Below, piece after piece: positions 44,859 to 64,000 of a DNA stretch of 64,000 bases (its first letter is position 1; the number at the start of each line of letters is the position of its first letter). Under the pieces are notes generated by a model. It ran no database searches, was not told the DNA's origin, and saw only the letters and a program-made list of their open reading frames with translations. Both the position numbers and the translations under genes were made by a program. The stretch is from Candidatus Omnitrophota bacterium (GTDB lineage Bacteria > Omnitrophota > Gorgyraeia > Gygaellales > Profunditerraquicolaceae), in contig JAQTQQ010000001.1 of the NCBI GenBank assembly GCA_028712175.1, forward strand, positions 96,992 through 160,991, read 5' to 3'.

Positions 44859-45760
44859 TGGTTATCGACAAGCAGAAACTTATTTTAGGAGCAGGAATAT
44901 TTTTAGCTATAATGGCCGCTATAATGCTGCAAATGTTCATTAAACAGCAGCAGCAGCTTGCTAATGAGAAGGCCAGGGCGGCGATTGCTAATTTGCAGTC
45001 TAACCAGACAGCTGTCTTGGTAGCCAAACAAGATATACCGCAGGGCTTGCTTATTGAGCCGGAAATGTTTGAAACATCGATTGTCCCGAATAAATTTGTT
45101 CAACCGCAGGCAGTAACATCTTTAGATAGGATTGCCGGCATGATTACGGTTGCCCCTATTGCAAAAGGCGAGCAGATAAGCCTCTCAAAGCTTGTTAGCG
45201 ATCAAAGGGCAGCCGGCGGGAATCTTGCCGGAGTGACCCCTTCCGGCAAGCGGGCGATTACTATTATTGCAGATAGCATTGCTTCTTTGTCCGGGATGGT
45301 CAGGCCTGGGGATTATGTAGACGTGCTTGCCATTATTCAGGTCCCCGCGCAAAATCAGGACGGGAAATTAATCAATCAAACTGCGGTTGTGCCTTTGTTT
45401 CAGAATGTTTTAGTTTTGGCTGTAGGGCAAAATACCGGCGCCTTAGCCGGTGTGTCAGGCAGGTATTCAGAGCCTTCCCCTAGCAGCAATAACGAGAACA
45501 ATCTTATTACTTTAGCATTAGGTCCAAATGAATCAAATTTAATTGCTTTTGTCCAGGAACAGGGTAGAATGCGTTTGGTTATGCGTTCTCCGGCCGATGC
45601 CAAGGTTGAGCCGATGGCTCCGGTCAGTTGGGATAATCTATTCCAGTATATTATGCCGCAGAAGGACGATGTTGGGCCGGATGTTACGCCGGTAGATACA
45701 ACGGAATATGTAGAGGTTTTACGCGGATTAAATAAGGCAAAGGTTCCTTTATCAAAATAA
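44858..45760 (+). CDS. cpaB: Flp pilus assembly protein CpaB/RcpC (SAF domain)
   Basis: N-terminal TM, a SAF-like segment 'LVAKQDIPQGLLIEPEMFE', and a beta-rich C-terminus. Its position is immediately upstream of the secretin. Confidence 0.6.
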   Translation: MVIDKQKLILGAGIFLAIMAAIMLQMFIKQQQQLANEKARAAIANLQSNQTAVLVAKQDIPQGLLIEPEMFETSIVPNKFVQPQAVTSLDRIAGMITVAPIAKGEQISLSKLVSDQRAAGGNLAGVTPSGKRAITIIADSIASLSGMVRPGDYVDVLAIIQVPAQNQDGKLINQTAVVPLFQNVLVLAVGQNTGALAGVSGRYSEPSPSSNNENNLITLALGPNESNLIAFVQEQGRMRLVMRSPADAKVEPMAPVSWDNLFQYIMPQKDDVGPDVTPVDTTEYVEVLRGLNKAKVPLSK

Positions 45761-45821
45761 AACAGGCAAGAGTTGAGGCCGCGGGGGTTTAGCCTTCGAT
45801 TGCCAAAGCCTAAGGAGAAAA

Positions 45822-47414: not shown

Positions 47415-47415
47415 G

Positions 47416-49575: not shown

Positions 49576-49587
49576 GAAACTTAAAAA

Positions 49588-49932
49588 ATGCGTTTAATCA
49601 ATACAACTAAGAATACTGTCTTGGCAGAAAACGTATTTCTGGCAAATAAGTCCTTATCAAGGATTAAGGGTTTGCTGGGGAAAAAGGTTTTTTTGCCTGA
49701 TCAAGCGATAATCCTTGATCCTTGTAATTCGGTGCATACTTTTTTTATGCATTTTGCGATAGATGTGATTTTCGTGGATAGGAATTATAAGGTTGTTAAG
49801 ATATTGCCCAAGCTTAGCCCAAATAGGATAACTTCCGTATATTGGCATTCTAGTAAGGTTATTGAATTACCTGCCGGAAGCTTAAGCCTCACCAATACCC
49901 AAGATCAAGATCAACTGCAGTTAATAAAGTAA
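49588..49932 (+). CDS. DUF192 family protein
   Basis: 'GLLGKKVFLPDQAIILDPCNSVHTFFMHFAIDVIFVD' matches the COG1430/DUF192 core. Confidence 0.6.
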   Translation: MRLINTTKNTVLAENVFLANKSLSRIKGLLGKKVFLPDQAIILDPCNSVHTFFMHFAIDVIFVDRNYKVVKILPKLSPNRITSVYWHSSKVIELPAGSLSLTNTQDQDQLQLIK

Positions 49933-50016
49933 TTTTACTTTTCTGTCCAATCTGACTTGACAAAATAATGAATAAGAGTTATATTTATACGTAGAAATGT
50001 CCAATCTGGAGGTTTC

Positions 50017-52155: not shown

Positions 52156-52168
52156 CGAGTAATTAACC

Positions 52169-52197
52169 TTGATTGTTTTATTTTCAAATGGTATATT
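52169..52197 (+). promoter_or_regulatory. sigma70-like promoter (TTGATT-17-TATATT) upstream of the Flp pilin array
   Basis: -35 at 52169-74, a 17-nt spacer, and -10 at 52192-97, with a ~120-nt leader to the first pilin ATG. Confidence 0.45.
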
Positions 52198-52318
52198 TAG
52201 GTAGATTATGAGCGATAATTTTAGTATTGCAAATTGATTAAAACTGCAGATAGCCGGCTCATGCAGGTAAGAGTAATTTATTTTTTGCGCTGGCAGGATA
52301 AAAAGAATTCTGGATAAA

Positions 52319-52450
52319 ATGATTTTAAGGGCCGGATACATTAAAGGACAAAGCTTTCTGGAATATACCATGTTGGTTCTCGTCGTCACTGCGGCGCTTG
52401 TTGCGATGACTGTTTATATTCAGCGCGCGATGCATGCCTATGTGGGTTAG
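52319..52450 (+). CDS. flp: Flp-family pilin (43 aa), not in ORF track
   Basis: MILRAGYIKGQSFLEYTMLVLVVTAALVAMTVYIQRAMHAYVG carries the Flp prepilin motif G-QSFL-EY followed by a hydrophobic helix. Confidence 0.65.
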   Translation: MILRAGYIKGQSFLEYTMLVLVVTAALVAMTVYIQRAMHAYVG

Positions 52451-52495
52451 AGTATTTTTGATAATTGTTCCGGCAAGAAAAAGAGTTTTATTAAA

Positions 52496-52657
52496 ATGAT
52501 TTTAAGATCCGCAAAAGGGCAAAGTTTAATTGAATATGGGATATTGGTACTTATCGTCACTGCGGCGCTTATTGCGATGACTGTTTATTTGTACCGTTCA
52601 TCAAACGCCCGCGTTAGGCGCAGCATAGATGAATTAAATTATTACAGATCAGATTAA
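52496..52657 (+). CDS. flp: Flp-family pilin (53 aa), not in ORF track
   Basis: MILRSAKGQSLIEYGILVLIVTAALIAMTVYLYRSSNARVRRSIDELNYYRSD. Confidence 0.65.
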   Translation: MILRSAKGQSLIEYGILVLIVTAALIAMTVYLYRSSNARVRRSIDELNYYRSD

Positions 52658-52675
52658 CACTAGAAGGAGGGGAAG

Positions 52676-52843
52676 ATGAAAAAGTTCAGGAAGGGGCAGA
52701 GTACACTGGAGTATGTAATAATTTTGGCGGCGGTAGTGGGTGCGATTATTGCTGTGGGGATAATGCTTAAACCGAAGTTGATAAACTCATACGATAATTT
52801 ATCTACTACAATGCAAAATAAAGTAGGCGAAGTTACTTTTTAA
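52676..52843 (+). CDS. flp: Flp-family pilin (55 aa), not in ORF track
   Basis: MKKFRKGQSTLEYVIILAAVVGAIIAVGIMLKPKLINSYDNLSTTMQNKVGEVTF, with RBS GAAGGAGGGG upstream. Confidence 0.7.
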   Translation: MKKFRKGQSTLEYVIILAAVVGAIIAVGIMLKPKLINSYDNLSTTMQNKVGEVTF

Positions 52844-52855
52844 GGAGGTGAAAGA

Positions 52856-53185
52856 ATGTTAAGGCTATTGAGAAAAGGACAGAGCACAGCAGAGTACGCA
52901 ATTGTGATTGGTTTAGTTATTGCCGCGGCGGTGGCGATGCAGGTTTATGTGAAGCGCAGTATTCAGGGCAAAATGAAAGATGCCGTAGACACTAATGATC
53001 CTGCCGCAACATTTTTGGTAACCCAACAGTATGAACCGCTATATCAGACCACAACTAATATGACATCAACCAGAGACGGTACTGAAGTAGCCACGACTAA
53101 ACAGGGCGGAGGCGTAACCAGGCAAATTAGCGGGCAGGATATAAGCAGTAGAACAGGTAAAACAAATATTTCAGCAGCTAATTAG
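52856..53185 (+). CDS. Flp-like pilin with ~70-aa C-terminal extension (109 aa)
   Basis: 'LRKGQSTAEYAIVIGLVIAAAVAM', a Thr-rich tail, and RBS AAGGAGGTG. Confidence 0.6.
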   Translation: MLRLLRKGQSTAEYAIVIGLVIAAAVAMQVYVKRSIQGKMKDAVDTNDPAATFLVTQQYEPLYQTTTNMTSTRDGTEVATTKQGGGVTRQISGQDISSRTGKTNISAAN

Positions 53186-53222
53186 TAGGTTAAAGTAGCG
53201 ATAAGTTTATTTAAATCAGGAG

Positions 53223-53537
53223 GTGAATATGTTGCGCGCAAGATCAAGAGGGCAGACTACCCTTGAAGTAGTTATTTTGATCGGTTTTGTTGTAGCGGCG
53301 TTAATTGCTATGGGCGTGTATATGAAAAGAGGTATTCAGGGAAGGCTTAGGGATTCGACGGACCAGATCGGGGAACAATATTCTGCGGGGTATACTACCG
53401 GAACATATACGACAAAGACTGAAATGACCCAAGTTGAAAACATGAGTGCGGGTGGTGCTATTGAGACAAATATTACCCGTAATAGGCAGACAAAAACCGG
53501 TTCTGAAACCGTATCGGATTTTACTCCGGGGTACTAA
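53223..53537 (+). CDS. Flp-like pilin with C-terminal extension (104 aa)
   Basis: 'RSRGQTTLEVVILIGFVVAALIAM' with RBS AGGAGGTG. Confidence 0.55.
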   Translation: MNMLRARSRGQTTLEVVILIGFVVAALIAMGVYMKRGIQGRLRDSTDQIGEQYSAGYTTGTYTTKTEMTQVENMSAGGAIETNITRNRQTKTGSETVSDFTPGY

Positions 53538-54157
53538 TGAGGCGAGGGCAATCGACCCTAGATTATGTTTTTTTGATTGGAGTAGCGGCTGCTGGACTTA
53601 TTGTTATGCTAGTCTATGTCAGCCGCGGGCTTCAAGGGAGTGTGCGCGATAAAGCCGACCAGCTAAGCGCTTGGCAGTATGAACCGGGCAATACGACCAT
53701 ACATAACAGGCAGACTAAAATAGCAGATTCTGATTCTGAATCCGGCAGCAGTACTACTGTTACTTATGGTAATTTAAATGAACCGAATACAGCTTTAGAA
53801 GAAATATTAGAAGAGATTGAAGAAAAACAGAAAGAAATAATAGAGCTTAAAAAGGAGTGGGAAGAAACACTGGTTAAAGAAGCTAAAAGCGAAGCGAAAT
53901 CTGTCAGGGATGGCGATTTGGACTGGCCCGGCCCTCCTGAAGACGGAGAGTTCGCAATTGTAACCAAAGAGCTGCAGAAGGCAAACGAGGAATTAGGGGA
54001 ACTGCTTGAAGAGGCAGATTTATTGGAAGAAGCCTGGAAGAAAAGGAAAATTACTCCAGATGTTACAGGTGAAACGCATAGCTTTAGCAAGGAAGAAGGT
54101 ACAAAATCAGATTCTAAATGGCAAATTGATGAAGCTATAGGCACTTTGATAAAATGA
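53537..54157 (+). CDS. Flp-like pilin with long acidic coiled-coil tail (206 aa)
   Basis: 'MRRGQSTLDYVFLIGVAAAGLIVM', then a Ser/Thr stretch and 'EEILEEIEEKQKEIIELKKEWEE...LLEEADLLEEAWKK'. Confidence 0.5.
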   Translation: MRRGQSTLDYVFLIGVAAAGLIVMLVYVSRGLQGSVRDKADQLSAWQYEPGNTTIHNRQTKIADSDSESGSSTTVTYGNLNEPNTALEEILEEIEEKQKEIIELKKEWEETLVKEAKSEAKSVRDGDLDWPGPPEDGEFAIVTKELQKANEELGELLEEADLLEEAWKKRKITPDVTGETHSFSKEEGTKSDSKWQIDEAIGTLIK

Positions 54158-54447
54158 CATTACGCAGAGGGCAAAATTTAATAGATTTAGCCTTGCTTAT
54201 CGGCTTGGTGGGGCTGGTAGTTATCGGGATGGAAGTTTATGTCAGGCGCGGTGTGCAGGGCAAGATTAAAGATGTTACCGATTATATTACGGAAACCACG
54301 CGCCAGGCGGTAGAAGATCCTAAGATGGTCAGTTCAACCACGCTTAACTTAGATTCATCGATGGAGTATAAAGAGCTTACTAAGGGCGCAAGAAGTTTAA
54401 AGGGCAGGGAGGATTCGGTTTCTGTTTATAATCAGCGCAGCGAGTAG
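54154..54447 (+). CDS. Flp-like pilin with C-terminal extension (97 aa)
   Basis: 'LRRGQNLIDLALLIGLVGLVVIGM'. Confidence 0.5.
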   Translation: MTLRRGQNLIDLALLIGLVGLVVIGMEVYVRRGVQGKIKDVTDYITETTRQAVEDPKMVSSTTLNLDSSMEYKELTKGARSLKGREDSVSVYNQRSE

Positions 54448-54517
54448 GATCTGATAAGGTTAGCTTAGGAGGTATTATTTTCTAAGGCAGAGCAGATTAG
54501 TAAGGAGATATTGAGAA

Positions 54518-55147
54518 ATGTTAAGAGACCGCAAAGCCCAAGCAGTTTTAGAATTAGCTATATTGGGCTCTTTGCTTATTATGGCGTTCTCTATCGCGAT
54601 AAAATACGGCGAACAGTATAACCGCGAGCAATCTTATATGCAGCAGACTTTCCGCGGTAATTTGAAGATGGCAAGAAAAGCCTTGGGCTCTACTTCCTAT
54701 GGGACCACGGATTTTCGCAGAAGTTCTAACATGATTGATCCTATGGAATTAGGGGAGTTACAGCAATTCGGCAGCTCTAATCAGGTGCTTTGGACGCATG
54801 GCAAAAAAGACCCGGCTACTGATGAGCCCTATGAGGCAAAAGGTTATTACCGGTTTAACCGGGGTGCAATACTTGAAGTTGCTTTGGGCCCAGCCCCATA
54901 CAATACATCTGTAACGCTTAGCTCCCATGTTACTACCTCTCCGCATAATGAAACCCGGTATTATAAAGACACAGAGGCGGGCCGTAGCAGCAGTACTAAA
55001 TGGATGGATGCCACAGATACTATTACTGCCAGTATGCCTTTTGCCGGCACAACTGTTTCGTTAAGTTCGGATCCATTCCACGATGAATTAGGCGAGGGTG
55101 GTTTTTATAAAAGCGGTGGTATAAAGCGTACAAAGACTTTAGAATGA
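54518..55147 (+). CDS. TadE-like pseudopilin
   Basis: 'RKAQAVLELAILGSLLIMAFSIAIKYGEQ' TadE-type N-terminus. 209 aa. Confidence 0.5.
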   Translation: MLRDRKAQAVLELAILGSLLIMAFSIAIKYGEQYNREQSYMQQTFRGNLKMARKALGSTSYGTTDFRRSSNMIDPMELGELQQFGSSNQVLWTHGKKDPATDEPYEAKGYYRFNRGAILEVALGPAPYNTSVTLSSHVTTSPHNETRYYKDTEAGRSSSTKWMDATDTITASMPFAGTTVSLSSDPFHDELGEGGFYKSGGIKRTKTLE

Positions 55148-55386
55148 TAAAGAAAGCCCAGGCAACATTAGAATTTTCTTTGGTTTTAATCATAGCTGTA
55201 GGCCTAATTGCGGGGTTTTATGTCATGGCCAGATGGGTAGCTGGGCATATCCCTAACCGCCAAGATTCATATGATCTTAGCCGGAAAGACGCAGGGCAGA
55301 AATCTTCTCCGGGCCAGCCTGAAAGAGTTTATGAAGCTTCAGTTTTTGCTGATTCGGCTGATTGGATCTATTTATTTAGAAAATAG
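55144..55386 (+). CDS. TadE/TadF-like pseudopilin (short)
   Basis: 'KKAQATLEFSLVLIIAVGLIAGFYVMARW'. Confidence 0.45.
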   Translation: MIKKAQATLEFSLVLIIAVGLIAGFYVMARWVAGHIPNRQDSYDLSRKDAGQKSSPGQPERVYEASVFADSADWIYLFRK

Positions 55387-55399
55387 TTGAGGAGATAAA

Positions 55400-56968
55400 T
55401 TGCCTTTGTGCCATCGTAATAAAAATATTCATTCCAAAGTAAGAAAAAAGCTCTCCGGACAGATTTTCCCTTTTTTACTCGTGGGCATAGTTGCTTTACT
55501 TGCCGTTGCCCTTTCTGCCCAAGGTATGTTTAGTTCTGCGAAAACCAGAACCTGCGCGGATAATGCCGCGGACGCCGGGTCTTTAGCTACTGCCTCCATT
55601 CTCGCCGGAGCTTTTAATGAATTATGCTTAAGGAATGAAGAAATGTGGGATTATTACGAGTTGGACCTAGAGTATTACCGGACCATGTACGCCTTGGCAG
55701 ATACTTATTTAACCGACGCAGATACCTTTAGCGTGGCTGCAAAAAATACAGCGTCAGCCGCATTACCCAATATTCGTGACGGAGGGTGCGAAACATGGAC
55801 CTGGCAGAAAGATGCTTCCCTGCAGAATTATAATCCCGACGGAGAAATTAATTCAGCTGCGGAATATGCCCTTGAGGCGGCAAAATGCGTCGGGGCTGTC
55901 GAAGTCCTTAATCTCTATATGCTGTTCCTTACGGATAATTATAAATATAATCAGACTGAAAATTATTGCCGCGCCCTTGATTTTATGAATTCAGTTTTTA
56001 CTATGAATGATTATTTTACAGACGCTAAGTCGGTAGGCTTAAAATATGCTTTTAATAACAGCTGTCAAGGCAGCGATGCCCTAAGTTTTTGGTTGGGAAC
56101 CGGCGGATTTAAAGACGGCACAACTTGGCCTCCCGGGGCCGATACCAGCCCGAACGGCTGCGGTATTACTGTTACCGTAGACTTACCGGCGTTAAAGTCT
56201 TTCGAGGTTGAGCATACTTTATGGAATTATCCCCATATAAAGACCCTTACTTATGCCGGTGTTACTTGTGACCCGGATCTTGAAATTCCAAGCTATTCTT
56301 TTCCAAATGATCCTTTTAACGTTGAAGGCGCATACCGTTTAAAAGAAATCTATAAGCTTTTTTATCTGGCTTTAAAAACAGCCGCAGCCAATGGCATGGT
56401 CATTTATAACTATACTGACGGTGCCCGCATGGTGCATGATACCTGCCATGATGAATTTGGTAATCCTTATAACTGCAATGAACATTGTAATAAGGAGGAG
56501 GATATTGCCACCGCGCGTTCTTTAGTGGAACCTTTGCGTTCATACCAATCATGCCTAATTAATGCATTAAATAATCTTAACTCTGGTGGCGGGGGAGTTT
56601 TATCGATCCATAATTTAAAGGAGCTCAATTTTGCTATTTATAATAATGTTTGGAAAAGCATATCGGCTTCATTGTTCTCAAGTAAAACCTGCGAGGATGT
56701 TAAAGTCCCCGGTGACCAAGACGAAGCTGGGCCTTGGCCGGGGCTGATGATTACCAAAATTGACGAGGTTAAGCTTACCTGGGCGGACTGGGTTACTAAT
56801 TGTACGGTAGTAGTATTTTGCAGGCATACAGATGAACGTACAGGCAGGGTTACTGTTAACAAGGTTACCGCTTTTAGCCAGGCTGAATTTAATGTCGATA
56901 ATCTCGGGGTATTGAGGACTTTTACAGATTTGTTTGATACACAAATTAAAGAAGCAAGAATATTTTAA
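55400..56968 (+). CDS. TadG-like pilus assembly/tip protein (Cys-rich, 522 aa)
   Basis: N-terminal 'GQIFPFLLVGIVALLAVALSAQGMF' Tad-like anchor followed by a large Cys-rich extracellular domain. Confidence 0.45.
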   Translation: MPLCHRNKNIHSKVRKKLSGQIFPFLLVGIVALLAVALSAQGMFSSAKTRTCADNAADAGSLATASILAGAFNELCLRNEEMWDYYELDLEYYRTMYALADTYLTDADTFSVAAKNTASAALPNIRDGGCETWTWQKDASLQNYNPDGEINSAAEYALEAAKCVGAVEVLNLYMLFLTDNYKYNQTENYCRALDFMNSVFTMNDYFTDAKSVGLKYAFNNSCQGSDALSFWLGTGGFKDGTTWPPGADTSPNGCGITVTVDLPALKSFEVEHTLWNYPHIKTLTYAGVTCDPDLEIPSYSFPNDPFNVEGAYRLKEIYKLFYLALKTAAANGMVIYNYTDGARMVHDTCHDEFGNPYNCNEHCNKEEDIATARSLVEPLRSYQSCLINALNNLNSGGGGVLSIHNLKELNFAIYNNVWKSISASLFSSKTCEDVKVPGDQDEAGPWPGLMITKIDEVKLTWADWVTNCTVVVFCRHTDERTGRVTVNKVTAFSQAEFNVDNLGVLRTFTDLFDTQIKEARIF

Positions 56969-57015
56969 AGAATAAGAATTTATTTAAACATTTCTAAAAT
57001 AATACTAAAAAGGCT

Positions 57016-57846
57016 GTGAGTATGATTTTTAAAATAAAAACCATATCCTCTGTGCTGTTTTTTGCAACATTTGGTCTTATCTCCGTTCTTTGCGCCTCTG
57101 ATTTAGGCGTACCCTTACCGAAAGACGCCGTAAAGATCCTGGAAAAAACCAGTAATTTTGGTCCGGTGAAATCATTTACGGAAGTTTATAAAACTTCTTT
57201 GAATAAAGCCAAGGTCATTTCGTTTTATAAGAAAGAGATGGCCAGGTCAGGATGGAAGCAAAAAGAGGAAGGGATTTTTATAAAAGATAAATTTATTGCA
57301 GTTGTTGTTTGCCGCTCCTCAAAGGACAAACAGGGCCAGGTAGAGTTTACAGTTACAATCAGCAATATCCCTTCCAAGGAAGAATTTTTGTTGATGCGCA
57401 AGGAGAAGCCTGATAAATTAAGTTATATGCCTATTTACCCGGGCAGCGTGCAGCTTTCTATTGTAAACCTGCCCGCAGGAATAGCCGGCGCTTATGAAAC
57501 AGAAAATAGCATCGAAGATGTTGTTTTTTTCTATAAAACTGGTATGCTAAATTATGGCTGGACCTTTGATAATGAGAAGTTTGTTCAGAGCAAGGATGAG
57601 CCCGTTGATTGCCCAAGTTGCCGGAAATTGCCCGGCTTCTTAAACGTCGCGAATAAGCCGAAAATAACCAGTAAAACAAGAAAAATTACCTTGATTTTCC
57701 GTAGAAAGAAATCAGAAACTTGCGTAATTACCGTAACCGAAGTTTCATCGCAACAGGGCAAAACCGCTAAAACGAAGATTACGGATTCACCGAGGAAAAC
57801 CACTATTCTCACTAGCTATCATGCGTATAAAAGTAACAGGCCATAA
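57016..57846 (+). CDS. secreted hypothetical protein in tad locus
   Basis: Signal peptide 'MSMIFKIKTISSVLFFATFGLISVLCASD'. Confidence 0.4.
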   Translation: MSMIFKIKTISSVLFFATFGLISVLCASDLGVPLPKDAVKILEKTSNFGPVKSFTEVYKTSLNKAKVISFYKKEMARSGWKQKEEGIFIKDKFIAVVVCRSSKDKQGQVEFTVTISNIPSKEEFLLMRKEKPDKLSYMPIYPGSVQLSIVNLPAGIAGAYETENSIEDVVFFYKTGMLNYGWTFDNEKFVQSKDEPVDCPSCRKLPGFLNVANKPKITSKTRKITLIFRRKKSETCVITVTEVSSQQGKTAKTKITDSPRKTTILTSYHAYKSNRP

Positions 57847-57997
57847 GGCCCAATCGACAATAGAATATATTGCGGTAATCATCGTGATTATTGCCGTTTT
57901 TATCTTTGCCGGAGTTTATTATCAGCGTAGCCTGCAGGGTAAGTACCGTCAGGCAGGCGATGCTATCGGCGGTGGCGAACAGTACACTCCTCGTTAA
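57821..57997 (+). CDS. flp: Flp-family pilin (58 aa), not in ORF track
   Basis: MRIKVTGHKAQSTIEYIAVIIVIIAVFIFAGVYYQRSLQGKYRQAGDAIGGGEQYTPR. It overlaps the 3' end of the upstream gene. Confidence 0.55.
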   Translation: MRIKVTGHKAQSTIEYIAVIIVIIAVFIFAGVYYQRSLQGKYRQAGDAIGGGEQYTPR

Positions 57998-58013
57998 ACA
58001 ATAACGGAGAAAT

Positions 58014-58859
58014 ATGATTATCTTGCTTAATATCCTTCTTTTATGTTCAGTTATCCTGCTCTCTTTCAGCCTTTTGCCTGTTATTATGCAGAAGATTCAG
58101 TCCTGGCAGCAGAAGAAAGAGGCTGTATTTGCTAAAGAAATGGATAAGATGTTCTATGACAAAAGCCCTAAAAGCATTGTTATGCTCTATTTTATCCTTC
58201 CCTTGATTTTTGGCCCAGCTGGTTATTTTCTTACACAATCCCATATCGTTATGATTATCGGTGCGTTTATTGGCGTAGCTATCCCTAATTTTATTTTAAA
58301 GGCCCGCTATAAAACCAGGATCCGCAAGTTCAATGACCAGCTTTTGGACGCCATTAATATGCTTTCCAGCTGTATAAAAGGGGGTTTAAGCCTTTTGCAG
58401 GGGCTAGAAGTGCTGGTTGAGGAGATGCCTGCGCCAATGAGCCAGGAGCTGGGTTTGGTGGTTAGGGAGAATAGAATGGGCATTCCGTTAGAAGAGTGCC
58501 TGAACCGCTTGGATAAACGTATGGCTCTTGATGAGCTTAGTTTGGTGGTTAATGCCCTTATGGTTGCCCGCGAAACAGGCGGTGAACTGCCTAAAGTTTT
58601 TAGCCGCCTAACCGTTACGATTAGAGATAATCGCAAATTAAGGGAGAGTATCAAGACACTTACTTTGCAGGGTAGAATGCAGGGCGTAATTATGTCATTT
58701 TTGCCGATTGTATTTGTGGCTTGGGTCCTCTCGGTGAATAAGCATCATTTTGATATTATGCTCACCGATGATTTTGGCAGGATGCTTTTAATTATAGCAG
58801 TGATACTGCAGGCTGTCGGCATGCTGTTGATTAAAATATTTAGTACAATCGAAATATAA
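58014..58859 (+). CDS. tadB: Flp pilus assembly protein TadB (T2SS-F domain)
   Basis: Polytopic protein with a T2SSF-like cytoplasmic domain 'LLDAINMLSSCIKGGLSLLQGLEV'. Confidence 0.7.
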   Translation: MIILLNILLLCSVILLSFSLLPVIMQKIQSWQQKKEAVFAKEMDKMFYDKSPKSIVMLYFILPLIFGPAGYFLTQSHIVMIIGAFIGVAIPNFILKARYKTRIRKFNDQLLDAINMLSSCIKGGLSLLQGLEVLVEEMPAPMSQELGLVVRENRMGIPLEECLNRLDKRMALDELSLVVNALMVARETGGELPKVFSRLTVTIRDNRKLRESIKTLTLQGRMQGVIMSFLPIVFVAWVLSVNKHHFDIMLTDDFGRMLLIIAVILQAVGMLLIKIFSTIEI

Positions 58860-58860
58860 T

Positions 58861-59715
58861 ATGGAAATAGCTATATACGGTTTTGCCATTGGTTCAATTA
58901 TCCTGGTACTCTGGGGGATTGTTTTTACGCAAGCCAGTTCGCTTTCGCGTATCCCCAAGGATGCTACAGACGTTAAATTCCAAAAACCAAAATTTGATTT
59001 TGCTGATCTTTTCCCGACTGGGGCATTTTTGGAAAAGTCCGGTATGGCAAGTAGCCTTAAGAAGTCCCTGGATACTGCGCATATCAATATGTCTCCCGGC
59101 GCATTTTTTAACCTAAAGCTGCTTTTATGCGGTTTACTGGTGGTTCTGGTAATATCATTGACCGGTACAGTCAATCCCCTAATAGTAATAATTTTTATTA
59201 TACTAGGGTATATTATCCCGGATTTTTATTTAAAACGTAAAGTTGCCAGGCGTAAATACCTTATTGCGCGCAGGCTTCCGGAAACAGTAGACCTTTTGGG
59301 TCTGTGTATAGAAGCAGGGCTAGATTTTGTAAATGCCGTGAAATGGGTAATTGACAGGACTCCTCATACCCCGATGACCGAGGAACTTGCTTTTGTTGTT
59401 GAAGAGATAAAATGGGGTAAACCGCGTATCCAGGCGTTAAAAGATATGTCGCGGAGGCTGGAGATATCCGAGATAACCTCTTTTGTTCAGACGATTATCC
59501 AAGCAGAACGCATGGGTACTCCGGTAGCTGAGGCATTTGCTATACTTTCCGAAGATGCACGTGCTCAAAGGTTTCACCGCGGCGAGAGGACCGCTTTACA
59601 GGCGCCTATCAAAATCCTCCTGCCTCTCATTTTCTTTATTATGCCAGTAATTGGTATTATTGTCGGTGGCCCCATATTGCTTACTTTTATGAAAGGCGGC
59701 CTTACCGGTTTCTAA
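58861..59715 (+). CDS. tadC: Flp pilus assembly protein TadC (T2SS-F domain)
   Basis: 'LPETVDLLGLCIEAGLDFVNAVKWV' T2SSF motif. It is a paralog of the preceding gene. Confidence 0.7.
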   Translation: MEIAIYGFAIGSIILVLWGIVFTQASSLSRIPKDATDVKFQKPKFDFADLFPTGAFLEKSGMASSLKKSLDTAHINMSPGAFFNLKLLLCGLLVVLVISLTGTVNPLIVIIFIILGYIIPDFYLKRKVARRKYLIARRLPETVDLLGLCIEAGLDFVNAVKWVIDRTPHTPMTEELAFVVEEIKWGKPRIQALKDMSRRLEISEITSFVQTIIQAERMGTPVAEAFAILSEDARAQRFHRGERTALQAPIKILLPLIFFIMPVIGIIVGGPILLTFMKGGLTGF

Positions 59716-59776: not shown

Positions 59777-59845
59777 TCTTTAACGTCCTATTTTGATTTT
59801 TTGGGATTTTAAGGTGCAATGTTTTCCTATTAATAACAAAATTAT

Positions 59846-60632
59846 CAGAAAATGGGGTCAGAATTATTTTTCGTTAGAAATCTCCTCCTTTTACGTCTCT
59901 TGTAATAAGGAGGGATGTTCTGTGGCTCGAAGACTGCGCTTATTTATAGCCGGCATGCCGTATCATATTATTCAGCGGGGCAATAATAGAATCCCCGTTT
60001 TTTTAAATGGAGACGATTACTCTTTCTTCTTAGAGGTTCTTCGGGAAGCAAAGATTAAGTACCCCTGCCGGATTTATGGCTATTGCCTGATGGCTAACCA
60101 TTTCCACCTGCTTATTGAGCCGATACAGAAAAAAGAAAATATTAGCCTATTAATAAAGCTGCTGGGAGCAAAATACGTGCGCTATTTTAACAAAAGGTAT
60201 AAGCGTTCAGGTACACTTTGGGAGGGGCGTTTTAGGGGCTCTTTGGTTGATAAAGAAGCATATTTTCTAATTTGTCTACGATATATCGAAATGAATCCTG
60301 TAAGGGCAAATATCTCTTGCCTTCCAGAATTATACCCTTGGTCAAGCTATAGGTTTAGGGCTTTTGGTCAAAAAAGCAACATCCTTGAACTGGATCCTTG
60401 GTACGATAGTCTGGGTTATAGCCTTGAGGAGCGGCAGGTTAAATATCGTCAATTTTTCCAGAGCTTATTACCAGAAGCCACGTTGAAACTTATCAGAGAA
60501 ATGACTAATAAAAATGGTATAGTGGGAGATGTTGATTTTAAAGCCTACATAGAACACCTTACTCTTAGGAAGGTTTCGATTGGGCCGATTGGTAGACCAA
60601 GGAGCGGAAAATAATTCTGACCCCATTTTCTG
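59846..60632 (+). mobile_element. RAYT / IS200-like element bounded by 25-bp inverted repeats
   Basis: Left IR CAGAAAATGGGGTCAGAATTATTTT at 59846-59870. Its exact reverse complement lies at 60608-60632 and overlaps the transposase stop. A 7-bp hairpin CCTCCTT / AAGGAGG (59884-59913) sequesters the SD, as in IS200. Confidence 0.65.
59922..60614 (+). CDS. REP-associated tyrosine transposase (RAYT) / IS200-IS605 TnpA-like Y1 HUH transposase
   Basis: GTG start 8 nt after AAGGAGGG. HUH motif 'ANHFHLLIEP', then 'WEGRFRGSLVDKEAYFLICLRYIEMNPVRA...PELYPWSSY'. The ORF-track N-terminal extension (59793-) covers the IR and is not coding. Confidence 0.75.
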   Translation: MARRLRLFIAGMPYHIIQRGNNRIPVFLNGDDYSFFLEVLREAKIKYPCRIYGYCLMANHFHLLIEPIQKKENISLLIKLLGAKYVRYFNKRYKRSGTLWEGRFRGSLVDKEAYFLICLRYIEMNPVRANISCLPELYPWSSYRFRAFGQKSNILELDPWYDSLGYSLEERQVKYRQFFQSLLPEATLKLIREMTNKNGIVGDVDFKAYIEHLTLRKVSIGPIGRPRSGK

Positions 60633-60893: not shown

Positions 60894-60922
60894 TTGACAG
60901 CGTCTATCTCAGGTGGTATATT
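60894..60922 (+). promoter_or_regulatory. near-consensus sigma70 promoter (TTGACA-17-TATATT)
   Basis: -35 TTGACA at 60894-99, a 17-nt spacer, and -10 TATATT at 60917-22, about 270 nt upstream of the large ORF. Confidence 0.5.
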
Positions 60923-61192
60923 TGATTGTAAGTTGAAGCAAAGAAAAGGTAAACTTAGAGTAATCTAAGGACACAAAGCCACGGGTCCTAAAATCAAAAG
61001 GAGTTTCTAAGGATAGCCGGGTTGCCAGAACCGACGAGAGTTGGAATTGACGACTCGGTTTTTATTTATAATCTTAATAAGAGTTTTTAAAAAGATTTTA
61101 AAAAGACCCTTATGAAAAGAATGATTAAAAATCTAGAAGATCTTGGGGCAAGGGGAAGTATTTATTTTTTACTTAACTTAATTAGATAAAAA

Positions 61193-64000
61193 ATGAATAT
61201 ACAAGAGCAACAGACAGAAGCCAGGATTGAGCAACCAAAAAAAGAGTTCAAGTCAAATTTTAAGACTTGGATTCGCGTGGTTGCTTTTATTCTTTTAGCT
61301 GTCTTTTTGCCAGAACAGGTTGCCCAAGCTGCTGAATATGACTGGAGCGTTATTTGGAATAAGCCTGCTGCAGGCAGTATCGCTCCCAGGTACCTCAAGG
61401 ATATTAACAATATTGATACTGCTTTAACTATCCGTAACATTCTTAAAGATATAGCCAATAAACCAATAAACGCAATCAAGGTTTCGTCCAATCTGACTAT
61501 AAATCTAGATAAGCCTTTGAGAATGTCCAATCAGAGAATTAATGAAATTACTGAGTGGCTAAAAGGAAGGCCTTGCGGATCAAAAGCTCTTTATGACTAT
61601 TTGAACCATTCCGGGGTTAAAGCTGCTGAAGGGGATATCGCAATTATGGCTTTAACTGTTGATATCCTCAATGATGTGGTCAGACCGGAAGGTAGGCCTG
61701 AAGTCATTAAAAGCTCTTTGTATGCCCTTTCTGAAGCAGCTAAATTTTTCAAAGTCAATTTATTTCCGGTTAAGGTTGATTCTAGCATTGATCTTTCCAG
61801 CCTCACCCCATTTATCGCGCATTTTAAAAATGAACATTATGTTTTAGTTACGCGCGTAAGCGAAGATAAGATTTATTATAATCAGGATCACCGTGAGGAA
61901 TTTTTACCAAAAGATACATTTTTAGCCAAGTTTAGCGGTTATGCTTTAACTAATATATTACCGGCAAATCTGAAAGTTTTATCCCCGGCTGAAAGCAAAA
62001 AGATCTTGGGCGCCAGGTTAGATGATGGATCCGGAAGATATCCATCGCGTACTCCTTCTGCTCCGCCACCCACTACTCGCACTAATAGCTGGGTTAGTTA
62101 TCTGCCTTCCAGGCAGACCTATGGCCCGCAAACCTCTGTCAGGCAGGTAACAACTGTTCGGCCGACCACTATGGATACTTCATCAGGCGCGGGGGCTTGG
62201 GTTCCACCGGCAGGATCAGGTTCAGGGGTCACTATACAGTTCCGTACACCTGCAGGCAACGCACCGGTGAATTATACTTTTACATACGGTGGCGTAGTCC
62301 AGAGAGATGCTAATGACAGGCTTTACGTAAATGGCACGGATAGATTTGGTAAGGCTTTCCAGCTCTATCTCTCTGATGCGTCCAGAAGATCAGGTTCGGT
62401 TGTTGCAGGGCAGGATTTGGGCCAAACACAGGTTCGTGTTGTAGATACTTCTAGGAGGTTTGGAGAGGATCCGGGGACGGTTTTGGATTATCAAATTAGA
62501 AGCGTTGAAACAGGGAAATGGGTTCCTTTGCCCAGTTCCCATTCGATTTCTGAATTAATTGGGAACCGTACCCCCGGAGCACACGCTGAGACTGTGCGTA
62601 ATATTAATCCTACCGGAACATTGGGGTATAGTGACAGGCTATATGCGACTCTTATTAGCGGTACTTCCAGCAGCGGCTATTCAAACAGGGCACCTTTTCT
62701 TCTTACCGTCTTTCCGAATTTTAATGCCAGTTCCAACACTTTAAGTCTTGGATTAAGTTCATACTTTATTCCCGGGCAATTTTACGTCAATCGATCATCA
62801 GGAAGCCCTGCCCGTGTTATAGACAGGGCAATAAATAACAACGTATTGATAAAGCATATTCCTCAAGCACAGATGTATCAGGCTGCCAGAGAAATTAACT
62901 CCAGATTAGCAGCTTCCGGATCGCAGGCATATTGGGCCGTTCATTCTTCATATAACAATATGGGAGCAAGTATTTCTATTGCGGCTTCGCCTACCTTATC
63001 CATGGCATCGTTCCAGAGCTTACAGCCTTCTTCGCTCCAGGATTTACAGCCTATACTTTATGTGGTTCAGACAAATCAGCGCGGTATAGTGCCATCATAT
63101 ACAGGTTTTGCCGATTTACGCCAAGTGCCTTCTTTAACGAAAATTATGGAGCCAGCTGTTATTTTAGACGGCAACCAACAGCTCTTAGGCTATACCGGCC
63201 CCGATAAACTTATGTACTCTGCTACTATAAATGGACATGGTTTAGGATTGGTTTCGCCATTCGTCAATTTGGATTGGTCTGAGCGCGGTGGCTTACAGCC
63301 GGTATTTGAAAATGCCCGCTTTAGTGTCGTCGGAGATGCTTTAAACCCCGCAGGCTTCGGCACCTTAAGGGTGGGCGTAGACTTGACACAGGTTGATTTA
63401 ACAAAAAGCCCTACCCAGTTTCATGTCGGGTTAAGTTCAAACACCATAACCGGTTTTATCCCGGATTTTGCTCCGGATGAGGCATCTTTAAGGAATGTGC
63501 CTGTTGCCTTAAATATGTATTCAGGCTTAGAGACTTCGGGTATGTTGAGTACTGATCTTAACAGCCAAGGAACCCGTTACTGGAAAGTTGAGGATACCAG
63601 AATTACCGGATTTTCCAATATACGTTCCTGGTCAGGGATAATAGATTTAGCCCAGTGGTCGCTTGAGCCTAAACAAACGGAGCTGACCTTAAATATGCAA
63701 AATGTCCATTTGGTAGCCGGGCCAAAAGGTTCCAATCTGCCATTTGCTAAAGATGTCTTCATGCCTGCGAATGTGGCCATCTACGCTACTCCTACACAAT
63801 CGCATTTTGAGCGCTACGGAAGCGCAAATTATATTGGTTTAGCCGGCGGCGCGCAAATGAGCTTTACTACCAATGCTTCAAGCCTGGACCTTCTTAATGT
63901 AAATATTACTTTAAATAATACTTTAAGCGGGCAAGAACATACTTTTAACGGAATGGGCCAGGCGTGGCACCAAGTTTCTCTTGCAAACCTCTCAACTCCC
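61193..64000 (+). CDS. large membrane-anchored/secreted protein with C39-like papain-fold cysteine peptidase domain, Pro/Thr linker and large beta-rich domain (3' end outside window)
   Basis: I translated the + frame by hand from ATG 61193 to the window end (>935 codons) without meeting a stop. N-terminal 25 aa, then TM 'WIRVVAFILLAVFLPEQVAQA', a Cys motif 'GRPCGSKALYDYL', and a His motif 'NEHYVLVT'. It is absent from the ORF track because it has no in-window stop. Confidence 0.7.
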   Translation, partial: MNIQEQQTEARIEQPKKEFKSNFKTWIRVVAFILLAVFLPEQVAQAAEYDWSVIWNKPAAGSIAPRYLKDINNIDTALTIRNILKDIANKPINAIKVSSNLTINLDKPLRMSNQRINEITEWLKGRPCGSKALYDYLNHSGVKAAEGDIAIMALTVDILNDVVRPEGRPEVIKSSLYALSEAAKFFKVNLFPVKVDSSIDLSSLTPFIAHFKNEHYVLVTRVSEDKIYYNQDHREEFLPKDTFLAKFSGYALTNILPANLKVLSPAESKKILGARLDDGSGRYPSRTPSAPPPTTRTNSWVSYLPSRQTYGPQTSVRQVTTVRPTTMDTSSGAGAWVPPAGSGSGVTIQFRTPAGNAPVNYTFTYGGVVQRDANDRLYVNGTDRFGKAFQLYLSDASRRSGSVVAGQDLGQTQVRVVDTSRRFGEDPGTVLDYQIRSVETGKWVPLPSSHSISELIGNRTPGAHAETVRNINPTGTLGYSDRLYATLISGTSSSGYSNRAPFLLTVFPNFNASSNTLSLGLSSYFIPGQFYVNRSSGSPARVIDRAINNNVLIKHIPQAQMYQAAREINSRLAASGSQAYWAVHSSYNNMGASISIAASPTLSMASFQSLQPSSLQDLQPILYVVQTNQRGIVPSYTGFADLRQVPSLTKIMEPAVILDGNQQLLGYTGPDKLMYSATINGHGLGLVSPFVNLDWSERGGLQPVFENARFSVVGDALNPAGFGTLRVGVDLTQVDLTKSPTQFHVGLSSNTITGFIPDFAPDEASLRNVPVALNMYSGLETSGMLSTDLNSQGTRYWKVEDTRITGFSNIRSWSGIIDLAQWSLEPKQTELTLNMQNVHLVAGPKGSNLPFAKDVFMPANVAIYATPTQSHFERYGSANYIGLAGGAQMSFTTNASSLDLLNVNITLNNTLSGQEHTFNGMGQAWHQVSLANLSTP

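Follow-up and report, generated by a model that had tools for sequence, protein, structure and literature searches.

At the downstream end of the stretch of Candidatus Omnitrophota DNA analysed here (64,000 nucleotides, called the window in the following), a long reading frame starts on the plus strand and leaves the window without having reached a stop codon. This raises the question which kind of protein is encoded here, how the synthesis of such a protein might be controlled and how the product might be matured. The original prediction described it as a giant membrane-anchored protein with a C39-like cysteine peptidase domain. The features that we assign to the locus are listed in Table 1.

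Table 1. Features of the giant gene locus (window positions, with amino acid positions of the giant protein where applicable)
Feature	Position	Strand	Basis
Tad (Flp) pilus locus upstream of the giant gene	44858..59715	+	Pfam
IS200-like Y1 transposase between TadC and riboswitch	59793..60614	+	PF01797, 52.9 bits
Promoter-like site: TTGACA, 17-nt spacer, TATATT, extended TG	60894..60922	+	consensus match alone
c-di-GMP-I class (GEMM-I) riboswitch aptamer	60939..61030	+	Rfam RF03167, covariance model, covariation
Predicted expression platform (terminator and local hairpin)	61015..61068	+	folding energies
Second conserved 5'-UTR element	61112..61192	+	motif in 66/71 leaders
5' end (936 codons) of the giant gene, CDS leaves the window	61193..64000	+	translation, database identity
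Predicted signal peptide or signal anchor: KSNFKTWIR (basic), VVAFILLAVFL, PEQVAQA (AXA-type site before A47)	61250..61330	+	conservation, model
Conserved subdomain preceding the C39 core, aa 76-124	61418..61564	+	conservation 0.69
C39 cysteine peptidase core, aa 125-253	61565..61951	+	Pfam, PDB profile, AlphaFold/Foldseek
Double-glycine-leader-like motif LKVLSPAESKKILGA, aa 260-274	61970..62014	+	conservation, leader consensus
Hypervariable Ser/Thr/Gly/Asn-rich body, aa 275-936	62015..64000	+	comparison with relatives

Extent and identity of the giant reading frame

Translation of positions 61193-64000 yields 936 codons without a stop, exactly as had been claimed for this frame, and the ATG at 61193 is the first possible start, since an in-frame TAA is located at 61187-61189. 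The translation agrees in all 936 residues with the beginning of the NCBI entry MDD5119843.1 (P0051; 4,560 aa, partial), which originates from a 171,864 bp contig of a Candidatus Omnitrophota MAG and is publicly named 'cysteine peptidase family C39 domain-containing protein, partial'. This extension beyond the window was obtained by exhaustive HMMER search. A near-identical copy of the protein reaches 5,667 aa and is likewise partial. With a minimum of 4,560 aa here and of 5,667 aa in this copy, the attribute giant is justified. Moreover, the reading frame is far beyond chance, since we found 139 confirmed relatives in GTDB genomes; in about 40 relatives the frame is open across all 10 kb fetched, corresponding to more than 3,600 aa each. 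The locus analysis was based on a comparative set of 80 related loci. Among these are MAGs from Lac Pavin (L004, L005, L028, L067 and L077), which may stem from the sampling site of West-Roberts et al. The overlapping reading frames are short, as had been noted before, and three of them are located on the minus strand; however, they are not all on the opposite strand, since two short ones lie on the plus strand in other frames (61659-61847 and 62559-62744).

Positions 61193-64000 cover the beginning of a giant gene of Omnitrophota, which belongs to a published class with an N-terminal C39 domain beside Tad/T2SS genes. The assignment of a C39 domain to this frame is correct but not new, as it is already contained in the public annotation and in the literature.

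The N-terminal segment and the C39 domain

The N-terminus with a single transmembrane helix that had been proposed is recovered in so far as a basic stretch precedes the hydrophobic residues VVAFILLAVFL (aa 29-39), and in the AlphaFold model this segment contains a helix at aa 23-37. No other segment of the protein is as strongly conserved (top-residue frequency 0.80-0.84 across relatives). The segment may serve as an anchor or may be cleaved off as a Sec signal peptide, with the hydrophobic region followed by a potential cleavage site between PEQVAQA and the next alanine. The C39 domain is predicted to be extracytoplasmic, since positive charges precede the hydrophobic segment and there are only two cysteines in the 4,560 aa of MDD5119843.1. 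The conserved subdomain in front of the C39 core matched no family and was modelled with moderate confidence (pLDDT 61-77, blocks 71-120).

For the domain of approximately 200 aa, in which C39-like Cys and His residues had been recognized, the original prediction recommended a Pfam scan, structure prediction and a comparison with C39 domains that process double-glycine peptides. All three agree with the assignment. Pfam family PF03412 (Peptidase_C39) matches aa 175-253 with 28.3 bits versus a gathering score of 22 (E 1.7e-6), and two relatives (L003 and L005) also score above this cutoff. In a PDB profile search LahT150 (6MPZ) was matched with an E-value of 1.5e-4 and with Cys, His and Asp aligned, although the stretch around the Cys alone is below significance in this alignment. 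The predicted triad consists of Cys128 (codon 61574-61576, within GRPCGSKALYDYL), His215 (61835-61837, within NEHYVLVT) and Asp232 (61886-61888), the latter being aligned with the Asp of the N-D-P of LahT150. C128, G129 and H215 are invariant in 21-29 relatives, and those relatives that we inspected by eye in alignment A2 keep an acidic residue (D or E) at one of the positions 231 and 232. The AlphaFold model has a pLDDT mostly above 90 for aa 125-270. Its best Foldseek match is the double-glycine protease LahT150; the isolated domains 6MPZ, 3B79, 7N87 and 5XE8 (ComA) were found with a probability of 1.0 and a target TM of 0.62-0.74, and PCAT1 (4RY2) was likewise found with a probability of 1.0. 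In this model a papain-like C39 peptidase fold with Cys128, His215 and Asp232 is present, and proteolytic activity can be predicted.

In the canonical C39 peptidases the Gln of the oxyanion hole sits six residues before the catalytic Cys. In the alignment of the relatives this Gln is absent; a near-invariant Trp122 occupies the position, there is no conserved Gln nearby and some relatives have loop insertions in this region. The missing Gln could indicate an inactive domain of the HlyB type, which would tether or chaperone the unfolded giant polypeptide while it is exported. The C39-like domain of HlyB is also among the structural matches (3ZUA, 7SGR). However, C39-like domains of the HlyB type are devoid of the catalytic Cys, whereas Cys128 and His215 are invariant here together with an acidic residue at 231/232, and the active double-glycine proteases match better. 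We therefore regard an inactive domain as very unlikely and favor a functional peptidase. Pfam detected neither an ABC_membrane nor an ABC_tran domain in the 4,560 aa.

A putative self-cleavage site behind the peptidase domain

The conserved module ends with the sequence L-S-x-x-E-A-K-x-I-L-G-A (aa 263-274). We compared it with the consensus of double-glycine leaders, for which we used L(-12) S(-11) E(-8) L(-7) I/V(-4) G(-2) G/A/S(-1) in an amphipathic helix. Six of the seven positions agree in the window (L263, S264, E267, I271, G273 and A274); with respect to the canonical leader, the deviations are Ala/Ser instead of Leu at -7 and Ala instead of Gly at -1. The motif-bearing relatives possess L/I/V at -12, S/T/D/N at -11, E at -8, A/S at -7 and V/I at -4, with Q at -8 or S at -1 in a few of them. 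Gly is present at -2 in 70/70 and Ala at -1 in 67/70 of the motif-bearing sequences, which were chosen by a custom motif score that itself rewards these residues; alignment A2, which was made without this score, gives the same pattern. In the AlphaFold model a helix is located at aa 265-269 and the pLDDT for aa 261-270 is 96.

The motif occurs once per protein. In about 150,000 downstream residues it does not recur above chance, so that we rejected multi-site processing for the available sequence. In the six-frame translations of the loci (2.3 million residues) it was found 64 times, always at the same position (64/64) and never in the neighboring genes. Taken together, the sequence conservation suggests a likely self-cleavage site directly after the protease domain, which is apparently unreported, and we propose the bond between A274 and R275 (nt 62014 and 62015) as the scissile one. 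The earlier idea of a self-processing surface protein thus gains support from the conserved motif directly behind the C39 domain as far as self-processing is concerned, with cleavage as the predicted step.

It is also conceivable, that the motif is just a structural C-terminal cap and that the real C39 peptidase cuts other sites or other proteins. The segment is modelled at high confidence inside the folded module, multi-site or trans cleavage has been raised in the giant-gene preprint, the leader-peptide HMMs of NCBIfam matched neither the motif segment nor the whole protein, and the residues at -7 and -1 depart from the canonical leader. A mere cap is nevertheless unlikely in our opinion, given the agreement with the leader consensus, the Gly at -2 in every motif-bearing sequence, the lack of a similar motif downstream or in the neighboring genes and a conservation boundary exactly after G-A. 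For the preferred cleavage in cis, docking may be strained, since there are only about 6-20 residues between the last C39 strand and the motif. All C39 domains known to us are cytoplasmic and act in trans on small N-terminal leaders.

The hypervariable body

Directly past the G-A motif the conservation drops from 0.62 to 0.18. Both the Pro/Thr-rich linker and the Ser/Thr/Gly/Asn-rich region of the original prediction were found again, the former at aa 282-299 and the latter with a Ser/Thr/Gly/Asn fraction of 0.32-0.37 beyond it. The body has no similarity to that of any of 61 comparable relatives, though identities of up to 81% are reached in the N-terminal modules, and within the 700 aa past the motif only about 8% of 1,891 pairs of relatives show similarity. 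A word-indexed search with the body gave no match, and an exhaustive search of 1.84 billion representatives retrieved no more than 3 remote relatives. The AlphaFold model of the body is unusable (pLDDT 30). The 4,560-aa entry contains a Gly/Ala-rich hydrophobic block at approximately aa 2250-3300 (from composition, with boundaries set by eye) and a Walker-A-like AAGKTQ / DEPQ pair. SecA/DEAD-like, glycosyl hydrolase or dockerin domains had no Pfam or PDB sequence match in the available partial sequence.

A riboswitch upstream of the giant gene

Directly upstream of the giant gene lies a riboswitch that had been missed in the first reading of the DNA. The aptamer matches Rfam RF03167 with 61.3 bits versus a gathering score of 59 (E 5e-12), and a lower-scoring member of Rfam clan CL00126 overlaps it as well. 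With a custom covariance model we detected it upstream of the C39 gene in 71/80 related loci. Covariation analysis revealed 97.5% paired cells and compensatory changes in 11/21 pairs, and not one of 500 shuffles reached the observed covariation score. The aptamer has a two-hairpin architecture with a GUAA (GNRA) loop in the first hairpin of the window. At the positions corresponding to the ligand-contacting nucleotides of Vc2, which we take to be G20, A47 and C92, there is a G in 73/78, an A in 78/78 and a C in 77-78/78 copies, the mapping to Vc2 being our own and approximate.

The best Rfam model describes the c-di-GMP-I-GGC variant. This class was rejected, since its defining G (CGCGAA) is replaced by A in the window and in all 78 copies (CACAAA or CGCAAA). 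Judged from this position, the pocket appears canonical although RF03167 is the best model, and binding of c-di-GMP appears probable from the sequence. We know of no established ligand of the GGC variant. A regex motif scan of the 64-kb window found no GGDEF, EAL or HD-GYP genes.

About 15 nt upstream of the aptamer is the best promoter-like site of the region with 11/12 consensus matches. Downstream, the 3' strand of the aptamer, AGCCGGGTTG (61015-61024), can pair with CGACTCGGTT (61051-61060) and would then form a strong terminator in front of a T-run. Folding energies are -21.6 kcal/mol for this long terminator, -19.5 for the aptamer and -5.9 to -9.2 for a weak local hairpin (61038-61056), which persists when the aptamer is folded. 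The terminator and the competing helices are conserved. Across the family, the free ensemble shows pairing between the aptamer core and the arm in front of the T-run, and forcing the aptamer reduces the pairing of the terminator arm. Judged from these competing folds, the riboswitch looks like an ON switch. Since the local hairpin with the T-run survives aptamer folding in the window, the ON/OFF call is uncertain.

The riboswitch might instead be an OFF switch or might sense a ligand other than c-di-GMP, so that the giant gene would be on at low levels of the messenger or upon another cue. This would fit the local hairpin that can form beside the folded aptamer in the window and in the closest relatives, as well as the GGC variant as top Rfam model. 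We consider it doubtful, since the strong terminator needs the 3' strand of the aptamer and the leftover hairpin is weak, across the family the terminator arm is less paired when the aptamer is forced, the canonical A is present in all copies at the variant-defining position and the ligand-contacting G and C are retained as well.

Between this presumed ON switch and the start codon there is a second conserved element, in the order GGGGCAAGGGGAAG (61145-61158), a pyrimidine-rich stretch, the SD-like TTAGATAAA and the ATG. Of the 71 leaders, 66 contain the motif GGGG(G)TAAGGGG(G)A ... TATAGGTAA, and no Rfam family was matched by the element. In the window the element reads as an in-frame short ORF of 25 codons (61112-61189). 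We rejected a conserved leader peptide, since indels in the G-runs break the frame while the nucleotides stay conserved; as the length of the G-runs varies and shifts the frame, the element is conserved as RNA and not as a peptide.

The neighboring tad locus and transposase

The original prediction had named a tad locus and a transposase as neighbors, and Pfam places both of them upstream of the giant gene. The tad locus encodes RcpC/CpaB, a secretin with TonB_C, a CpaE-CpaF fusion ATPase, a DUF192 protein, Flp-type pilins, two T2SSF proteins (TadB and TadC) and TadE/TadG-like proteins, the last of which had no match in Pfam and were labelled only from their position and their N-terminal sequence. 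TadB/TadC are encoded directly upstream of the C39 gene in 42-46/80 loci. A homolog of the transposase is present in only 7/80 loci; the transposase is an occasional insertion outside the system.

This tight synteny and the absence of an A24 prepilin peptidase between 44858 and 59715 could imply that the C39 peptidase matures the Flp pilins of the adjacent locus. However, the pilins carry a class III / Flp-type cleavage site (…KG↓QSTAEY) and no double-glycine leader, and the removal of prepilin leaders takes place at the cytoplasmic side of the membrane whereas the C39 domain is predicted outside; a prepilin peptidase may also be encoded elsewhere in the genome. On the grounds of motif and topology we reject the C39 domain as a prepilin peptidase, a role that is extremely unlikely.

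Proposed mechanism and significance

Our model for the locus is as follows. Transcription would start at the promoter-like site. Without ligand, the 3' strand of the aptamer would pair downstream and form the strong intrinsic terminator; with c-di-GMP bound, this strand would be held in the aptamer, only the weak hairpin would be left and the very long transcript could be made. Such an ON switch would co-ordinate the giant gene with the neighboring adhesion pilus. The conserved signal or anchor would carry the N-terminus through the inner membrane by the Sec route, where the C39 domain with its presumptive triad would fold outside the cytoplasm, recognize the adjacent leader-like helix and cut once after G273-A274. 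This cut would free the N-terminus of the fast-evolving, almost cysteine-free body, which might stay attached via the hydrophobic block far along the protein. Taken as a whole, we consider this combination of a giant gene, ON control by a riboswitch, Sec export and C39 self-cleavage rather probable. More tentatively, it is possible that an Omnitrophota-wide head exists, consisting of the ON-riboswitch, the second UTR motif and a Sec-exported self-cutting C39 domain, with fast-evolving or swapped bodies behind the cleavage site.

To our knowledge, no predicted protein in biology is longer than those encoded by the Omnitrophota giant genes, and we are aware of no account of their regulation and maturation. 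If the link to the riboswitch holds, c-di-GMP would be the signal by which a cell commits itself to transcribing tens to hundreds of kilobases, and this commitment would be tied to the neighboring adhesion pilus. A single self-cleavage site would provide a small (about 300 aa) and easily expressed test object for an otherwise intractable class of proteins. Moreover, the sharp boundary between conserved head and hypervariable body suggests a cassette-like diversification at the interface to prey or host. If the proposed head exists, its C39 peptidase would be the first one known to us that acts extracytoplasmically and in cis, and predatory or host attachment would be under the control of a second messenger and matured by self-cleavage.

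Comparison with known systems

The C39 domains of the PCAT/AMS type (LahT150, 6MPZ; PCAT1, 4RY2; ComA, 5XE8) share the fold and the aligned Cys, His and Asp with the giant protein, and the motif next to its C39 domain fits their leader consensus L-S-x2-E-L-x2-I-x-G-G/A. In contrast to these systems, there is no ABC transporter here, a Sec-type signal precedes the C39 domain, which is predicted outside the cytoplasm, and the oxyanion Gln is not conserved. The leader would be internal and in cis right after the protease, and the cargo comprises thousands of residues instead of a peptide. The C39-like domain of HlyB (3ZUA) has the same fold and is also tied to the export of a very large protein, but it is cytoplasmic and has no catalytic Cys, whereas Cys and His are invariant here.

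In Pseudomonas, the LapA/LapG/LapD system releases a giant adhesin by a periplasmic cysteine protease under the control of c-di-GMP. LapG is a separately encoded transglutaminase-like C93 protease that is controlled post-translationally via LapD. The proposed logic is similar, with c-di-GMP governing a giant surface protein and an N-terminal cut at a motif of small residues, and is an analogy and not a homology: the protease of the giant protein is of the C39 type and fused in cis, and c-di-GMP would act on transcription via the riboswitch.

The Omnitrophota giant genes described so far, where giant means more than 30,000 aa, possess an N-terminal C39 domain near a predicted signal peptide and have Tad/T2SS genes alongside (West-Roberts et al. 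2023, bioRxiv 10.1101/2023.11.21.568195; 2026 preprint, 10.64898/2026.06.07.730766). Many TM helices, a SecA-DEAD-like domain and glycosyl hydrolase/transferase domains also belong to their description. The gene of the window resembles this 'Archaeovorin' type in phylum, in the C39 domain near a signal peptide, in the largely domain-free N-terminal region, in the very long, assembly-breaking ORF and in the Tad/T2SS neighbors. It differs in documented length, with 4,560-5,667 aa in two partial proteins. For the C39 domain it was proposed that the giant protein is cut several times or that the substrates are separate (West-Roberts et al. 2023, 10.1101/2023.11.21.568195), whereas our data point to one dedicated site instead of a cleavage into multiple pieces. 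Neither a riboswitch nor c-di-GMP is mentioned in the main text of 10.1101/2023.11.21.568195 and 10.64898/2026.06.07.730766, and a full-text search, covering few subscription journals, found no paper joining Omnitrophota giant genes to riboswitches or c-di-GMP. Four features are thus apparently unreported, namely the aptamer, the G-A motif, the collapse of similarity after G-A and the second RNA motif.

The control of adhesion genes by c-di-GMP-I riboswitches as such has been described for Vc1/gbpA of Vibrio cholerae (PMC4744006) and for adhesins and pili of Clostridioides difficile (PMC6200980). As in these cases, the gene for a surface or adhesion protein has a class I aptamer in its 5' UTR in the Omnitrophota locus, presumably with terminator-based control. 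The differences are the size of the gene that would be gated (at least 14-17 kb), the distribution over an entire candidate phylum and the second conserved UTR motif behind the aptamer.

Extent and identity of the giant gene

The plus frame from the ATG at 61193 is open to the end of the window, as the original prediction stated: translation gave 936 codons without a stop, and a missed stop codon is ruled out. Since an in-frame TAA (61187-61189) lies ahead of this ATG, 61193 is the first possible start. The ORF was indeed absent from the ORF track, solely because it exits the window. The overlapping track ORFs had been described as short and on the opposite strand, which holds for three of them, but the overlap also includes two short ORFs on the plus strand, each read in another frame.

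With residues 300-936 (numbered from this ATG) as query, exhaustive searching by HMMER identified a 100% identical match with exactly the same N-terminus, the 4,560-aa protein P0051 (MDD5119843.1) from a Candidatus Omnitrophota MAG, which is labelled 'cysteine peptidase family C39 domain-containing protein, partial' at NCBI. P0055, which falls in the same cluster and is likewise partial (5,667 aa), represents essentially the same gene, with one copy fewer of an exact 201-aa tandem repeat and approximately 1,300 residues more. From these two partial copies it follows that the encoded length is >5,600 aa, which is a lower bound, and the giant size suspected before is thus confirmed. Repeats of this kind are probably the explanation for these genes ending contigs. 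Beyond the window, a Gly/Ala-rich hydrophobic block (approximately aa 2250-3300) precedes charged sequence that includes a Walker-A-like motif, both unrecognised by Pfam and PDB sequence search. Approximately 200 residues before its C-terminal end, P0055 also possesses a weak Peptidase_M50-like motif, HELGH, which is embedded in hydrophobic sequence and scores 21.6 bits, short of the 27.2-bit cutoff.

The homologues belong nearly all to the Omnitrophota, are tagged 'partial' and have only the first 30% or so of the query in common. We confirmed 139 loci in GTDB genomes and fetched 80 of these; in approximately 40 of the 80, the ORF is open across the full 10 kb available (>3,600 aa), and several genomes carry two or three copies. 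Of the related MAGs, many (L001, L003, L006, L014 and others) were submitted under the name 'uncultured Planctomycetales', and isolated ones under Ignavibacteriae or Margulisiibacteriota, despite an Omnitrophota-typical locus; these odd names are probably a matter of taxonomy labels or binning.

The original prediction is therefore correct; annotation and publication of both gene and C39 head preceded it. N-terminal C39 domains near predicted signal peptides have been described for Omnitrophota giant genes (West-Roberts et al. 2023, 10.1101/2023.11.21.568195), and a PF03412 architecture cluster together with flanking Tad cassettes is listed in a 2026 preprint (10.64898/2026.06.07.730766). The main text of neither preprint mentions a riboswitch or c-di-GMP, and wider literature searches did not find either linked to Omnitrophota giant genes. 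The searchable literature likewise yielded no mention of a predicted phylum-wide c-di-GMP riboswitch, of one lone site of the double-glycine type or of the second UTR motif.

Conserved head and variable body

The relatives share a head consisting of signal/anchor, C39 core and a terminal motif. Mean conservation amounts to 0.80-0.84 in the signal/anchor, 0.69 in the C39 core and 0.62 in the motif, and is 0.18 directly after it. This head is at least 45% identical in all 1,891 pairs of relatives, and a 150-aa alignment within the next 700 residues exists in only about 8% of these pairs. The window shares such a body alignment with none of 61 comparable relatives, and the sole match of its body among the loci is L016 (31% identity). 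For the variable region, a word-indexed search returned nothing and an exhaustive search of 1.84 billion representatives only three remote relatives; its structure model (pLDDT 30) is unusable.

The signal/anchor is conserved more strongly than the protease core. Sec signals are not usually conserved to this degree, and a specific partner may be the reason. A TM helix had been proposed here. The hydrophobic segment is present: basic residues are followed by VVAFILLAVFL and then by PEQVAQA and a further A. Sec signals classically have this arrangement, with an AXA site, and the supposed anchor may therefore be cleaved there. The 4,560 residues contain only two Cys, one of them Cys128, and this scarcity fits an exported protein. 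Signal layout and Cys scarcity together lead us to predict export.

A predicted c-di-GMP riboswitch ahead of the gene

The aptamer ahead of the gene (see table) has a near-consensus promoter-like site (TTGACA-17-TATATT) just 5' and a hairpin with a T-run 3' of it. With a covariance model made from 15 copies, it was found upstream of the C39 gene on the coding strand in 71 of the 80 loci; for three of the nine loci lacking a match, the upstream sequence is too short to judge. The structure is well supported by pairing and covariation (97.5% of the alignment cells paired, compensatory changes in 11 of 21 pairs), and the observed scores were reached by 0/500 shuffles. The best Rfam model is the GGC variant, a reading that was rejected because all copies (78/78) have the canonical A where the GGC consensus has G.

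Pairing between the aptamer 3' strand (61015-61024) and 61051-61060 would give a terminator of -21.6 kcal/mol immediately ahead of the T-run. For the aptamer fold the value is -19.5 kcal/mol, and with the aptamer locked only a hairpin of -5.9 to -9.2 kcal/mol is left. Family-wide, the free ensemble has the arm preceding the T-run paired with the aptamer core, and forcing the aptamer reduces this pairing. This layout fits a predicted ON switch, which we consider somewhat probable and not more, since the residual hairpin could still terminate in the clade of the window.

A second conserved motif was present in 66 of the 71 leaders: GGGG(G)UAAGGGG(G)A, approximately 25 pyrimidine-rich nt and then UAUAGGUAA. 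Judged by eye from a handful of sequences, base pairing is possible between the second G-run and the pyrimidines that follow it, with changes that seem, uncounted, to compensate. No match exists among the Rfam families. At times, gene callers include this motif in the giant protein, which lengthens its N-terminus.

In five loci (L046, L053, L066, L072, L080), a gene of 390-1,160 aa with a signal-like N-terminus lies between aptamer and C39 gene. As the stop codon of one gene overlaps or adjoins the start codon of the next, the gene order suggests a single, probably co-transcribed operon. Further aptamer copies precede other genes (see table), and the riboswitch regulon may extend past the giant gene.

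Genomic neighbourhood

The tad locus and the transposase reported to adjoin the gene are both there. In 42-46 of the 80 loci, the genes for TadB and TadC immediately precede the C39 gene; the transposase is present in only seven loci and is incidental. The N-termini of the tad-locus pilins are of the class III / Flp-like type (…KG followed by QSTAEY), and the locus (44858-59715) yielded no A24 prepilin peptidase (TadV/CpaA). The 712-aa protein encoded there has no Pfam match. The FIST-domain protein and the histidine kinase may provide sensory input; we make no link to the C39 system.

Features of the window and of related sequences
Feature	Position	Strand	Remarks
FIST-domain protein and GAF/HisKA/HATPase histidine kinase	38697-41396	minus	beside tRNA, upstream of tad region
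Full Tad locus	44858-59715		
Tad secretin with C-terminal TonB_C domain	45822-47414		
CpaE-like (ParA/MinD)/CpaF-like (T2SSE) ATPase fusion	47416-49575		719 aa
712-aa protein	50017-52155		within tad locus; Lys/Glu/Ala-rich repeat region; kept in 15 related loci
IS200-like transposase	59793-60614		
c-di-GMP-I-class aptamer	60939-61030	plus	Rfam, 61.3 bits (gathering score 59)
Second conserved RNA motif	61112-61192		between riboswitch terminator and start codon; G-rich core 61145-61158, SD-like 61180-61188
Signal peptide/anchor	61250-61330		aa 20-46; FKSxFKxWIRVVAFIVVAVFLPEQVAQA; most conserved part of whole protein
Exact 201-aa tandem repeat	P0051 aa 1398-1776		beyond window
Extra aptamer copy	L066 878-973		5' of Flp-type pilin gene; clear
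Extra aptamer copies	L058 258-407; L064 1440-1573		5' of Flp-type pilin genes; weak, E ~0.1
Extra aptamer copies	L027 76-204; L075 1476-1591		5' of 1,179-1,218-aa secreted-looking proteins

The C39 peptidase and its putative cleavage site

The C39-like peptidase domain recognised by eye was recovered by Pfam (Peptidase_C39, 28.3 bits; gathering score 22). When a profile of 21 relatives was searched against the PDB, it matched LahT150 (6MPZ), a double-glycine protease, and the alignment brought the Cys, His and Asp regions into register. The AlphaFold model of residues 125-270 (pLDDT mostly >90) bears out the suspected likeness to such proteases: Foldseek matched LahT150, a Vibrio C39-like domain, PCAT1, ComA and the HlyB C39-like domain, each with probability 1.0 and a target TM of about 0.7 (isolated domains). 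The proposed catalytic Cys and His correspond to Cys128 and His215, which like Gly129 are invariant among the relatives, and an acidic residue at 231 or 232 is retained. The canonical oxyanion Gln is absent from the domain, its position being held by a near-invariant Trp in the aligned relatives.

The head ends with L-(S/T/D/N)-x-x-E-(A/S)-K-x-(V/I)-(L/M/K)-G-A (residues 263-274 in the window), just before the proposed scissile bond between A274 and R275. Among 70 sequences above our motif score, which itself rewards these residues, Gly at -2 and Glu at -8 occur in 70/70 and Ala at -1 in 67/70, and -4 and -12 are aliphatic throughout; in a few further members, Gln replaces Glu at -8 or Ser replaces Ala at -1. 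The same pattern appears in an alignment of the relatives made without this score. The motif occurs once per protein, with no recurrence above chance in approximately 150,000 downstream residues, and 64/64 occurrences in 2.3 million six-frame residues of window and loci are at this position. In the AlphaFold model (pLDDT 96 at aa 261-270), residues 265-269 are helical and residues 272-273 extended. None of the leader HMMs matched. The most economical reading is, we infer, one dedicated predicted self-cleavage after Gly273-Ala274, either in cis or between copies.

C39 proteases cut at the double-glycine leader consensus L-S-x2-E-L-x2-I-x-G-G/A. Six of seven positions of the motif agree with it, and such a cut site agrees with 6MPZ as the best structural match.
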